Shown one piece after another: positions 1 to 64,000 of a stretch of 64,000 bases of DNA. Source of the stretch: Bilabrum cf. latius (lineage: Eukaryota); contig OZ237740.1 of the NCBI GenBank assembly GCA_965178125.1, positions 62,001 through 126,000 of the forward strand, given 5' to 3'. Within the stretch, counting starts at the first letter, position 1, and the number at the start of each line of letters is the position of its first letter. Below the pieces are notes generated by a model, which did not search any database, was not told the origin of the DNA, and was given only the letters and a program-made list of their open reading frames with translations. The position numbers were made by a program, and so were the translations under genes.

Positions 1-3000
1 CGCGAGCTCCTCGGCCTCGACGAGAGCCTTGCGAGAGTCCGGCGGCAGGTCGTGCACGTCCTGCTCCAGGACGACCGTCTCAGTCTCGGCTGCCCGCGCC
101 GCCGCCACTGCCGCGGCTACGATTCGCGGTTTGCGCGGACCCGGTTCTATCTTGTCAAGCAGATCTAGCACATCTCCGGCAACCACGGGAAGCTCTGACG
201 TCTCACCCTCCCCTGCATCCACCCCACGGGACACGCCCGATTCACCCCTTCCTCTCCTAGAGTTGTCAGCGCTGCTTGCCACAGAGTTGGCTCCTGAAGT
301 GGCTTTGCTGTTGCCACCCCCACCTCCACTACCACCACTACTGCCGCCCATTCGCCGCCGCCGCCGCCGCCTGCTCGCCGCAGAGGCTGCATCGCCACCA
401 TCCTGGGCACTATCGCTTGCCTTGGGCCTCTAGCTTTTCTCTCTTTCTTGCTGCAGCTGTTCGTAGTACCTCTGTGCCTCTTTAGAGTGGGTCCCTGCAG
501 CCCAGCTGCCTGCGGGCATGGGCAGGTCGGTGGGCAGCGGCCTGAGCCCAATCGACTTCCGGGTCATTTCCACCGTGTCTGTCGCTTGGGGAATCTTCGC
601 GCCAGCATTACGCGGCGACAGGTTCAGTCTACGCCTCATATCTGCGTACGCCCGCTCGCATGCCTCTGCCTCTGCCCTCGTCCTAGCCACCCTCCTGTGG
701 TCGGCATCTACCTCCTACACCTGCCTAGCATGCAGTGCCCTGATGCGCTGCAACTGGCGTAAGGCAACCCTGTCGATGGCGCGGGCTGTGGCGGGCTGAT
801 TTACGTGCTGGTGATCCAACACCACCTCCTGCACCACCGGCACCACGTCGGATTCACCTGCCATCGAGCCACCGAGAGCCATGCACACCTGCCCTCTCGT
901 GGGGAGCAGCTCGCTAGTTTGCATCTCGGGAGTGACGTAGGGGTCACGGATGGCGAGAACTTCGACAGGGCCGAACTCGACCGACTCTGCCTCTTGATCG
1001 TGGTCCGTTGTGCCATCACGATGCACCTTGGCTCTCGCGGACAGCAGGTCCAGAGGGTGCATGCGAGCCTGTTCCTCCTCCTCTTTCGAGCCCCGTGCAG
1101 CGCCATTCAGGGAGCCATTGGCTCCGCTGGGAGCATCAGACTAGATCCGAGAGCGGAAGCTGGAGATGGGCATGGCAGTACCCAGCTTGCGGAGTCCTGG
1201 GCTCGGAGTGGCTCCAGCTTTGGCCTGCCTGTCCTCGTGGCCAGCAGCGGCTCGCACGGCTTCCTCTATTCCAGCGATACCATCCTCCTCTTGCGATCTC
1301 GGACGGATTCGTCCGGCCCGTCCTGCCCTCTCAGGGGGGCGCACCGGTGACATCTCCACGACCACGTCCACTGGGGTCACCGGGGCAGCTGGGCCCCTCT
1401 CCTTGGGCGCATCAATGTGCCTCGCTGGGGGACGCACGGTCCTGCACCGCTCTTCCCAGGCATGCGCCACTGCAAGTAGCTCCATTTCAGTTGTGAAGGC
1501 CGTGACACGGGCCATGTAGGGCATTCCGGCCTTCAGCTGCTTTTCCCCGTACAGTGGCTGGCCGTCGCAGTGCCCAGCGTACTCGACCTGACGCAGCATC
1601 GCCTCTCGTAGCCTCCAGACGCGCACGCGGTGTCGAATCGGTACCCAACTGTGCTGCCCAGGAAGACCACCGGTGCACGGATACAGATCCTGCGAGCTTG
1701 TGCCGGCAGTACGATCATCGTTGGCGCCCGTAGCTGTTGCCGCGGCGCTGTCCATCGCCTTTCCGGACCTGCCGCCTGCGCCCACTGCAGGCAATCTGCG
1801 CCCAGTTAATGCAGCGTTTGGGTTAGCCGAGGCCTGCACAATGATGGGCCCCCTATCCATGGCGAGATCAACCGCATCGCTGTCCATGAGCCCCCTGTAG
1901 CCCCTATTTCGCACCCCTGGAGGCTGGAAGGCGTATAGCTCCACTTCCCGTGCAGGCAGCCCCACTCGCCTGCGAAGGCACGCAAGCAGCTCCCTCATGT
2001 GCGCGAACGTGTCCACACGCAGCGACACCAGAGTCACAGAAGGCAGCCGGGCCGCCCTGTGCACTGGCATGGCTGCGATTGACTGCAGCACGGCGCGGGG
2101 ACTTGCCGTCCCGGTACTGACTCCCCGCAGCAGCGGCCTGGCCCCCGGGTACTTGGACAGCGTCTGGCAGATGCCTTGCAGGATGTCTCGGTTGACGCCA
2201 GACTGCTGCAGCCAGTACTTCGCTACTGCTCTCGGCACGTCGATCTCGCCCACGAGCGTGACAGAGTAGGTGCGGTGCACAGCCGGCACGGGGAGCGTGA
2301 GAACGTTGAAGGACTGGAAGGTGCGCGATCGATTCCCGCAATCTGGGCAGGTGAGCTCGTCCTGCAGCATTCCGCCCACGAGTCGGTTGGGCACGGAGCC
2401 GTCCTTCCTGCAGTGCTGCACCCACGCCTTGACGGCTGCCTGGTACCCCTCCGTGAGCGGCTGTGCCTCAAGCAAGAGAGGGTCGAATGGGACCAGGGCC
2501 TCGCGTGCCTTTGCCCCGGGGTCCTCCAGCTTCGAATTGTCTTCGCTGCTGCCGCCTGCACTGCCTTTGCTTTGTGCGCGCGCCATCGGCCAAGCGGTGT
2601 CGTCCTCGAGACAGCCGAATAGCTTGGCGAGGAGCTCGCCCGCGTCCTGCTGCACGCTGCCCGCCGCATCTGGCCAATGGTTTGCGATGGCCTGCTTCAG
2701 TGCCATCGGCCAAGTGAAGTTAGAGGTGGACTGCCACTGGCCCGCGATTGTTTGGGTGAGGGCCCGGGTAAAGTCTCCGCGGCTGCCGAACTTTGCCGCA
2801 GGGTTGATCAACGTGTCGGATCGGTGTCGCACAGCGATGGCTGCTAGCTCGGGAACGTGCACCAGACACTGCGCGACACGATGAGTATGGAAGAGGAATC
2901 GAAAAAGTTGCTTGGTCGTAAGTTATCTTTGCAAGCATGGCGTGTCATGTTCGCATTTGGCGAGTATGCATTCCAGTGTTTGACCAGGAATGCGTTCTCG

Positions 3001-3555
3001 AATGACTTGAAGGTACTTCACCAGTTAGGGGGTGAATCTCGCGGCAAATACAACTCTTACCTACAAGGGGGCCGCCATGTAGCACGAGTTGCCCAAATTA
3101 CAGAATCCCACTGCGCCTGAACCGACAGGGCCAGAGCCTTGCGATTCGACTTGCTGGCCAGAGGGCGAACCGATTCCGAGAAAGTCTACGAATGAGAACG
3201 CAGGCTATTCAGATGCAGGCTATTTCAGATGCTCCAACATGCTCCAGAGAGACCAAGTACTGATTGCTGCTCCGAAAACGAAGATTGTAGCAGACTGAAT
3301 CCACACGCCGAGGCCTTGGCGTTCCAAAGCGTCCACGATAACCTGTTGAAGCAGCGTCGCTATTCCAAATACCATCAATAAAACCGTGAGTGAACCTACT
3401 GATGTGGGAATAATGCAAAGGGGGTTGCAAATCACATCCCATCTCCAGGAACTTGCTTCGCCTCTCTATTCAGCCACAGGCTCATCCAGCGCAGTTTTGG
3501 GCTACGGAGGTGTATTTGCAACATATGAAGCCCCACCCGTTAGTAGTTGATTCAT
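1..3555 (-). CDS. Ubiquitin-specific protease (USP/peptidase C19) with N-terminal hydrophobic segments; 3' end runs off the window
   Basis: ATG 3555; exon 1 3555-3061; intron 3060-2869 (GTAAG...CGCAG, phase 0); exon 2 2868-<1. Cys-box GFCNLGNSCYMAAPL[TAG]CLVHVPEL, QQDAGELL motif, CxxC (LTCPDCG). In-frame TAG at 3502, 3466, 3220, 3205, 3061, 1141, 715, 430. His-box not seen in window. Confidence 0.9.
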
Positions 3556-3730
3556 GCTGATATGGTTGTGAGAGAGAAGAGCGGCGAATCATGAATTTCT
3601 ATTCTTCTTCTTCGTATTGTGCTCAGTGCCACAGTTTGGCGATTCGTTCGTTCGTTCGCTGGCACCAAGGAATACCCGTCAGAGTATCTACACAGTAGCA
3701 GCAGTGCTGTTGTATAGCATTCATAATTTG

Positions 3731-63224: not shown

Positions 63225-63340
63225 CGACATCTTGGATCAGCTCTTGATACGCTTGGCGACTTCGATTTGGCATTGGCCCCTGCGAACTGGTGTTGGAAAG
63301 TGGCAGTGCACTGTGGTGCACACGGATTCTGCAATTCAGC

Positions 63341-64000
63341 ATGGAGCACGATTCAGACGCCTCGCGCATGGCCGCGATTGGTCCTGGCCTGTACGACATG
63401 AAATGTCTTGACGTGGCGGCAAACTCCACCCTGAAGAGCCGCCTGATGAGCCTTTACAGCGATATTGATTTCGATGAATTGGGAAAGGTGTGGGAGCGCG
63501 ACACCATAGAAGCCGGCCCGGATCGACGCTCGCAGTCGGCGTCTCGCTCCAACCACTCGGCGTCTCGCTCCAACCACACCACCACCGCCAGCACCAAGTA
63601 CACCCGCATCGTGGACGGGCGGGAGGAAGTCGTGGACACCTCGTACAAGACCAGCTCCATCCACGAGGACGGGCCCACCATCCAACGGGCCCTGCAGCTT
63701 GCAGAGCTGGCCTCCAGTGGGGGCAAGGCAGGACTGGATCTCAGCGCGGCGTGGTCATCCGGCAAGTCTCGGCGCACTGCTCAGCTCGCCACAGACGTCA
63801 CGGTGAGCGTCAGGGGAGGCGAGCCCAGCCTCGTCAGCGCCACGCAGGACCGCGAGACGATGATGGCTGGGCTCAAGCGCTGGGCCACCACGGTGGACAC
63901 GATGCCGGCCGTGGTGGACATGAAGTTCTGGGCCCTGCACGGCCTGGCTCTCTTCGGCGACTGGGAGGCGTGCACCCGCATAGCGATGGAGGCAGGCAAG
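63341..64000 (+). CDS. Protein containing the C-terminal part of a MACPF-like domain (runs off window)
   Basis: Open frame from ATG 63341 to window end: VTVSVRGGEP...LKRWATTVDTMPAVVDMKFWALHGL resembles the MACPF GG...W...P motif. Confidence 0.5.
   Translation, partial: MEHDSDASRMAAIGPGLYDMKCLDVAANSTLKSRLMSLYSDIDFDELGKVWERDTIEAGPDRRSQSASRSNHSASRSNHTTTASTKYTRIVDGREEVVDTSYKTSSIHEDGPTIQRALQLAELASSGGKAGLDLSAAWSSGKSRRTAQLATDVTVSVRGGEPSLVSATQDRETMMAGLKRWATTVDTMPAVVDMKFWALHGLALFGDWEACTRIAMEAGK

Follow-up and report, generated by a model that had tools for sequence, protein, structure and literature searches.

Reassignment of UAG alone to glutamine (Gln, Q) has been reported from Iotanema spirale and from the ciliates Protocruzia tuzeti, Hartmannula sinica, and Trochilia petrani, according to PMC11687900. 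Iotanema spirale, a member of the Fornicata, is an anaerobic gut flagellate known from its transcriptome, and the account in PMC5304391 gives it a nuclear code in which UAG means Gln and both UAA and UGA act as stops, with 104 gene ends in UAA and 15 in UGA. Here we describe a stretch of 64,000 nucleotides (contig OZ237740.1, positions 62,001 to 126,000; "the window" below means this whole stretch) in which UAG very probably encodes Gln throughout the nuclear genes and termination falls to UGA, mostly, and to UAA, which is the assignment of NCBI table 15. The window has a G+C content of 62%, contains some 20 genes of eukaryote type spread over both strands of its 64 kb, and is nuclear DNA of a GC-rich protist. 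The likeness to Iotanema includes the way in which the code was read, as there too UAG alone was assigned to Gln from in-frame UAG codons opposite conserved Gln, and a tRNA with a CUA anticodon was proposed and, in that account, not yet found (PMC5304391). The two differ in their terminators, UAA being the main stop reported for Iotanema and the window having 14 TGA ends against 3 TAA, and also in setting, the window coming from a genome of 62% GC whose introns are short and which has relatives in environmental data.

The three ciliates resemble the window in that UAG only is read as Gln, with wide use in coding sequence, but UAA is described as the preferred stop there, as it is for phyllopharyngean ciliates (PMC11687900). 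In the window TGA is the main stop, the G+C content is 62%, and introns measure 90-192 nt. Ciliate genomes are AT-rich. The rhizarian exLh and the phyllopharyngean metagenome-assembled genomes from TARA share the uncoupling of UAG from UAA but are reported to read UAG as leucine (Leu) (PMC5304391, PMC11687900), whereas in the window Leu is opposite none of the TAGs in well-aligned columns and likelihood favors Q. The codes in which both UAA and UAG mean Gln (table 6) are listed in PMC11687900 for many ciliates, Ulvophyceae, Hexamita, Streblomastix, and Amoeboaphelidium. These have in common with the window the change of a stop to glutamine and differ from it in that UAA is sense there as well, TAA not being sense in the window. 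Code 15, with TAG as Gln, also occurs in crAss-like and Lak phages of bacteria together with a suppressor tRNA; the assignment is the same, but the genes of the window are eukaryotic nuclear genes with spliceosomal introns.

The 16 maximal frames, 16,827 codons in all, contain 74 in-frame TAGs, and exon 2 of ELF1 contains one more, which makes 75 in 17 genes, and the first-exon frame of a ubiquitin hydrolase gene contributes five beyond these. A sequence-only reading of the window had claimed about 75 in-frame TAGs in 17 genes on both strands, and the count held, but about six of the 75 lie upstream of the first ATG (two each in SNM1 and ABCC, one each in DIM1 and the TPM-domain gene) and about eight more are doubtful (five at the start of the frame at 58812, three within or just past the duplicated stretch that opens the frame at 52551). 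It had also claimed that consecutive open fragments are split by TAG alone. The 16 long frames contain neither TAA nor TGA (0 each in 16,827 codons, by construction), but the added statement that there is never a frameshift was too strong, introns of 90-192 nt being present. In the other five frames of the same stretches TAG, TAA, and TGA occur at 5.9, 2.5, and 13.0 per 1000 codons. The in-frame TAG rate of 4.4 per 1000 is close to the off-frame value, so TAG is hardly avoided in genes, and it makes up 10.4% of the Gln codons of the window. Read with the standard code, the stop-free frames reach at most 1011 residues; with TAG as sense the longest frames reach 2198, 1645, 1584, 1470, 1334, 1078, and 1036 residues, and with TAA as sense no frame in the window gains length. 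Frame length was dropped as a stand-alone proof because TGA as sense likewise lengthens frames (18,868 residues in frames of at least 500 residues against 21,124 for TAG, with a maximum of 1106 against 2198).

Domain architecture was also followed across the TAGs. The main genes with Pfam matches are the following.

1 to 3588, minus strand: ubiquitin hydrolase (UCH/USP; Pfam UCH), truncated by the window edge, with TAGs beginning at 1143, 717, and 432 and TAG 3063-3061 at the end of exon 1.
Within it, minus strand: exon 1 with TAG 3063-3061 as its last codon, an inferred intron 3060-2869, and exon 2 from 2868 (TTG TAG/GTAAGAG ... GCGCAG/TGT CTG).
16468 to 18852, plus strand: GH27 alpha-galactosidase, with TAG 17524 and 18388 between Melibiase_2 and Melibiase_C and a TGA end.
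20466 to 23576, plus strand: SNM1/PSO2-type nuclease (Pfam Lactamase_B_2 and DRMBL), with eight TAGs in frame, six of them past the likely start at about 20778, and a TGA end.
24408 to 31004, plus strand: Na+/H+ exchanger (NHE) with a cyclic-nucleotide-binding domain (Pfam), 2198 codons, with six TAGs (25659, 26334, 27861, 28845, 29043, 30867) and a TGA end.
31320 to 33323, minus strand: SPFH/Band 7 protein (Pfam), with five TAGs (32873, 31859, 31778, 31457, 31403) and a TAA end.
33950 to 38887, minus strand: ABCC-type transporter (two ABC_membrane and two ABC_tran in Pfam), with four TAGs past the likely start at about 38647, two upstream of it, and a TGA end.
48139 to 48627, plus strand: ELF1, with exon 1 at 48139-48248, an intron at 48249-48338, exon 2 at 48339-48627, TAG 48340-48342 between the CxxC pairs, and a TGA end.
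48704 to 50254, minus strand: DIM1/KsgA-type rRNA dimethylase, with TAG 49633 within RrnaAD, a second TAG at 49105, and a TGA end.

In ABCC, GH27, SNM1, NHE with its cyclic-nucleotide-binding domain, DIM1, and ELF1, the Pfam architecture is complete only across TAGs. That read-through restores whole proteins had been proposed from the letters, and the Pfam matches bear it out: the four ABCC domains appear as two ABC_membrane and two ABC_tran stretches, the MBL and beta-CASP parts of SNM1 as Lactamase_B_2 and DRMBL, and GH27 and its C-terminal domain as Melibiase_2 and Melibiase_C, and the TAG that joins the two halves of DIM1 sits inside RrnaAD. For ELF1 (Zn_ribbon_Elf1, E 1.5e-13) both CxxC pairs do belong to one protein as proposed, but their union needs the removal of a 90-nt intron, TAG being the first complete codon downstream of the 3' splice site. 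Besides its cyclic-nucleotide-binding domain the NHE carries about 1800 residues of mostly low-complexity cytoplasmic sequence, a layout that may resemble that of the SLC9C family.

Individual contexts also bring Gln to mind. One TAG in the frame at 41413 lies within a Gln run (KQ-TAG-QQQQ), and the joint of exons 1 and 2 of the ubiquitin hydrolase reads CYMAAPL-TAG-CL, which we take to correspond to the "LQCL" of the Cys-box in the Pfam consensus. When the Pfam UCH Cys-box was scored with nine residues plus X at the TAG, Q alone extended the match to profile position 17; the match is weak (12.5 bits, E 0.11) and below the family cut-off. A PDB search with UCH exon 1 gave weak USP21 matches (E 0.75-0.89) that end one residue before the TAG. 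The TAG was also tried as part of the UCH 5' splice site and this was rejected, as the alternative cut TT/GTAGGT keeps the frame with neither downstream AG.

Evidence on the amino acid comes from relatives. Nine fragments from close relatives were found as protein-database entries, evidently standard-code gene calls broken at stops. For the ubiquitin hydrolase, P0026 (590 residues, about 90% identical) ends exactly at window TAG 1143. For Band 7, P0029 (96% identical) has S at one window TAG, Q at another, and its end opposite a window CAG, P0043 (94% identical) ends at window TAG 32873, and a homologue that is 36% identical has Q, by eye, in the column where P0043 ends. The NHE relatives P0179 and P0180 (95-96% identical) have Q, E, E, Q, and Q at five of the six window TAGs, and both end opposite a window CAA; other NHE fragments end opposite a window CAG (89% identical) or at a window TAG (86% identical). 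Taken over the fragments that are 94-96% identical, seven window TAGs face Q four times, E twice, and S once. Five of the nine fragment ends face a window sense codon, which is a Gln codon in all five (CAG three times, CAA twice); three fall on a window TAG, and the tail of the ninth is unaligned. Genome-contig and viral-contig collections searched with P0180 yielded no relative. Farther out, none of the named proteins in the searches was close: in the best named matches of a full-length ABCC search, identity was about 34% for long alignments, reaching 43% in a short piece of the nucleotide-binding domain, and the TAG sites of ABCC fall in linkers. For Band7 the best match beyond the clade among 1.84 billion representatives searched was 47% identical, and a PDB search placed only R and T opposite one of its TAGs. 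In a protein atlas the clusters nearest to P0029 are most common in diatoms and haptophytes, a coarse hint that does not amount to a placement.

A more distant lineage is represented by a metagenome contig, L001 (12,052 nt, 56.6% G+C), which carries SNM1, NHE, and Band7 in the order and orientation of the window; its proteins (1-12052 against window 20466-33323) are about 57-68% identical. Its NHE is a single frame of 2101 codons with 19 in-frame TAGs and a TGA end, and its SNM1 has seven TAGs. The TAG density in NHE is about twice that of the window (19/2101 codons against 6/2198), and reading TAA as sense brings no gain in frame length in L001. The NHE alignment covers residues 22-2197 and reaches the common terminal TGA; that of SNM1 runs from residue 105 to the end, including "QEFG.SQ.M" past the last TAG. 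In all seven NHE segments between TAGs, identity between window and L001 is lowest at codon position 3, and in six of them it is higher at position 2 than at position 1 (for example 0.88, 0.96, and 0.46 at positions 1, 2, and 3). On these alignments, purifying selection continues after every NHE TAG of the window. Only one of 24 TAG sites in NHE is common to the two.

The three gene pairs were codon-aligned, and columns with at least eight of twelve identical ungapped flanking residues were kept (1728). In these columns TAG is paired with a sense codon 14 times, for Q nine times, S twice, and R, H, and E once each, and there is one TAG/TAG pair. Gln makes up 3.6% of the kept columns as background, and ordinary Gln codons pair with Q in 72% of cases. 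Log likelihoods from empirical partner tables for each residue were -20.8 for Q and -48.6 for the runner-up, H; with a looser cut-off of six of twelve there are 22 pairs, 11 of them with Q, and the values are -43.0 against -76.5. Examples of such pairings are VGEEFL-TAG-RSAERE with VGEEFLQRSAERE, DYRFPP-TAG-EAC with DYRFPPQEAC, and TKAESE-TAG with TKAESEQ. The last lies at the end of the fragment P0048, and since P0048 ends at the TKAESE-TAG site its stop is TAG. The alternative that TAG stands for a residue other than Gln, for example Glu, Lys, or Leu (the assignment of the rhizarian exLh), draws some encouragement from those TAG sites whose partner in relatives is E, S, R, H, or A and from several contexts that would, by eye, read well with Leu. 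The gap of at least 28 log-likelihood units between Q and every alternative leaves this idea hardly any chance of being right, as do the informative fragment ends, all five of which face Gln codons; Leu itself is found at none of the 14 well-aligned TAG partners (nor at any of the 22 with the looser cut-off), though it makes up 10.7% of columns. Judged by sequence comparison, this use of TAG recurs through a clade of at least three divergence levels, namely the window, relatives that are 86-96% identical, and the L001 lineage at about 68%.

Whether RNA removes or edits the TAGs was checked with contigs of four runs from four separate studies (X3, X5, X6, and X7), which were compared with window 41001-51000; uncovered parts were not counted, and the RNA nature of X5 and X7 was judged from spliced contigs alone. 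Besides ELF1, one gene is central to this comparison.

46056 to 47923, plus strand: gene with three RNA-proven introns (joints 46056/46150, 46255/46350, 46401/46499), with TAG 46688 in the last exon and a TGA end.

X5 and X7, from two studies, each have one contig that skips these three GT..AG introns, and an X7 contig skips a fourth intron at 48248/48339. The X3 contigs read through all four, one of them spanning 42457-50184 without a difference. X3 retains the introns that X5 and X7 contigs skip, and the skipping contigs therefore derive from spliced RNA. These spliced contigs keep TAG 46688 (X5 and X7) and the ELF1 TAG 48340 (X7) with no other letters, and none occur over 46499-48012 in X5 or over 46499-47995 in X7. 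Unspliced X5 and X7 contigs, which are possibly DNA, match the window at TAGs 42892, 42928, 42946, 44108, 44378, 44657, 44774, 45005, 45260, 49105, and 49633. No splice joint or letter change was seen in the contigs at the 18 in-frame TAGs of 41001-51000, and the main RNA form keeps TAG. The contig data leave room for rare edited molecules, and nothing specific speaks for the idea that the TAGs go untranslated, whether through pseudogenes, assembly errors, in-frame introns, or U-to-C mRNA editing. Contigs from all four studies match long pieces with no other letters and no change at TAG, spliced contigs keep TAG with no joint removing one, the frames are interrupted by TAG only and never by TGA or TAA, purifying selection persists past each TAG, and relatives use TAG too. 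We give this idea next to no probability.

The other two stop codons were examined at 17 gene ends, in frames defined by reading through TAG: 14 are TGA, three are TAA, and none is TAG. Outside support for the C-terminus exists for NHE, SNM1, ARPC5, and ELF1 only. In NHE and SNM1 the position of the TGA end is common to the window and L001, and TAA ends ARPC5, Band7, and the gene at 43127.

11703 to 11705, minus strand: TAA stop of ARPC5 (p16-Arc), whose Pfam P16-Arc match runs up to profile position 149/150; the last exon is without TAG.

The ARPC5 TAA falls one residue past the end of this match. If TAA stood to CAA as TAG stands to CAG (0.143), 17 in-frame TAA codons would be expected, and none was observed in 16,827 codons; the frames were defined as free of TAA, so the comparison is partly circular. 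UAA as a sense codon was not found by frame lengths in the window and L001, by codon counts, or by gene ends. A code in which both UAA and UAG mean Gln (the table 6 type), with TAA rare merely through GC richness, is therefore extremely unlikely in our estimate. It could appeal to the two relatives' fragments that end opposite a window CAA, where one C-to-T change would give TAA. Its difficulties are the zero against 17, with the circularity just mentioned, the failure of TAA as sense to lengthen any frame in the window or L001, the TAA at the end of the P16-Arc profile in ARPC5, and the two other genes closed by TAA, each with a TGA three to four codons on.

A code of the kind known from Condylostoma or karyorelict ciliates, in which UAG would be Gln inside genes and yet terminate some of them by context, is a subtler alternative. 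The gene ends number only 17, and TAG is frequent in the 50 codons past the real stops, which could hide a TAG terminator with a short open stretch behind it. On the other hand, none of the 17 ends needs TAG, conservation in NHE and SNM1 passes the last TAG to the common TGA, and the base after sense TAG (G 23, C 25, A 15, T 11) resembles the base after CAG. We consider context-dependent termination at UAG very unlikely.

UAG as Gln, with UGA and UAA as terminators, remains the reading that we favor. The three central claims made from the letters alone came through this analysis: that TAG is a sense codon, by domain continuity, coding-type conservation after each TAG, and retention in spliced contigs; that it is likely Gln, which the partners and fragment ends of relatives and the L001 likelihood (Q -20.8 against H -48.6) strongly support; and that TAG alone was reassigned, by the absence of in-frame TAA (0 of 16,827 codons against 17 expected) and the TAA that ends ARPC5 at its profile end. 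Several points weigh on the other side. Among the 14 well-aligned TAG partners five are residues other than Gln, about as for real Gln codons (28% non-Q), the sample being small. Two fragments end opposite a window CAA, so the stop of those relatives could be TAA, and in Logan proteins a stop and a contig end are not directly distinguishable. Contigs drop rare variants, which leaves room for partial editing. The sample is 17 genes in 64 kb rather than genome-wide, scans for tRNA genes gave none in the 64-kb window and none in L001, and an eRF1 gene does not lie within the window.

Mechanistically, UAG would be decoded by a tRNA-Gln with anticodon CUA, as known codes suggest (PMC5304391, PMC11687900), and eRF1 would have lost efficient recognition of UAG and be a poor competitor there. 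Anticodon CUA pairs with UAG and not with UAA, which would explain why UAA has remained a stop. UAG is translated efficiently enough for genes with five to eight UAGs to persist under selection.

The remaining features of the window are as follows.

3734 to 8485, minus strand: frame of 1584 codons with RGG and AP repeats, family not recognised, with three TAGs (5959, 5434, 5392) and no Pfam match.
12458 to 16459, minus strand: membrane protein frame of 1334 codons, family not recognised, with five TAGs.
38841 to 41420, plus strand: coiled-coil protein with a (GA)n tract and five TAGs.
41413 to 42987, plus strand: frame of 524 codons, family not recognised, with seven TAGs, one within the Gln run KQXQQQQ (42946).
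43127 to 45823, plus strand: frame of 898 codons, a membrane or secreted protein, with six TAGs and a TAA end; two X5 contigs (43135-45252, 45245-45864) match the window without a difference.
52551 to 55787, plus strand: frame of 1078 codons, family not recognised, with six TAGs; its initial 265 nt lie inside a 100% duplicate of 50155-50454.
56017 to 58170, minus strand: TPM-domain and RING protein, with TAG 57000 in the coding part, TAG 58032 upstream, and a TGA end.
58812 to 63224, plus strand: frame of 1470 codons with a weak kinase match and six TAGs; the first 94 codons include five of these and may be non-coding.
63248 to 64000, plus strand: open frame running off the window edge, with a weak MACPF match (E 0.0087, below the family cut-off) and no TAG in 251 codons.

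The frame at 3734-8485 contains long simple repeats of two kinds, consecutive GGGR units and (AP)n. In 8486-12457 on the minus strand, ankyrin-repeat matches fall in two frames beside ARPC5 and ARPC5 itself is split between frames, which points to further introns there. At 42390-42495 contigs of X3 and X5 contain a second haplotype or strain variant with six differences, four of them synonymous in the 41413 frame, and this fits a real gene for that frame. A trinucleotide repeat of the TGC/GCA type at 45677-46010 has very high summed contig depth in the four runs with many loose ends (in X3, for instance, 9548 where the surroundings have about 40); this depth is that of a common low-complexity motif and not a copy-number signal. 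Two direct repeats of at least 300 nt and 100% identity occur with their order swapped (50155-50454 = 52516-52815 and 50716-51015 = 52202-52501), the first overlapping DIM1 at its 5' end and the 52551 frame at its start. Depth over these repeats in X3, a genomic run, is 70-88 against about 40 in adjacent bins, and this approximate doubling fits a genuine two-copy stretch. An Rfam scan of the window at gathering scores gave no match, and no rRNA or phylogenetic marker gene lies within the 64 kb.

In this clade UGA, and not UAA, would be the main terminator. A literature search, with subscription journals mostly outside its reach, found no report of UAG-only reassignment to Gln in a GC-rich non-ciliate; the runs that match the window date from 2025, and their depositors may already be aware of the code. 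We put at about an even chance that the window belongs to an independent, so far unreported origin of UAG as Gln in a GC-rich, intron-poor, non-ciliate clade, "non-ciliate" being presumed, as the window holds no marker gene. For practical work the consequence is that proteins of this clade come out truncated when genes are called with the standard code, and the relatives' entries in databases are fragments of just this kind. Without table 15, the annotation, completeness scores, and phylogenomics of these organisms will be wrong. With several related lineages at hand, the turnover between TAG and CAG becomes measurable. The code change probably took place without AT pressure, and if so, a route through an ambiguous intermediate or one driven by the tRNA fits better than the classical route, in which a stop codon is captured as it disappears. 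It is rare for a code to give UAG and UAA different meanings, and a case in a GC-rich genome with UGA as its main stop widens the conditions for stop-codon capture.

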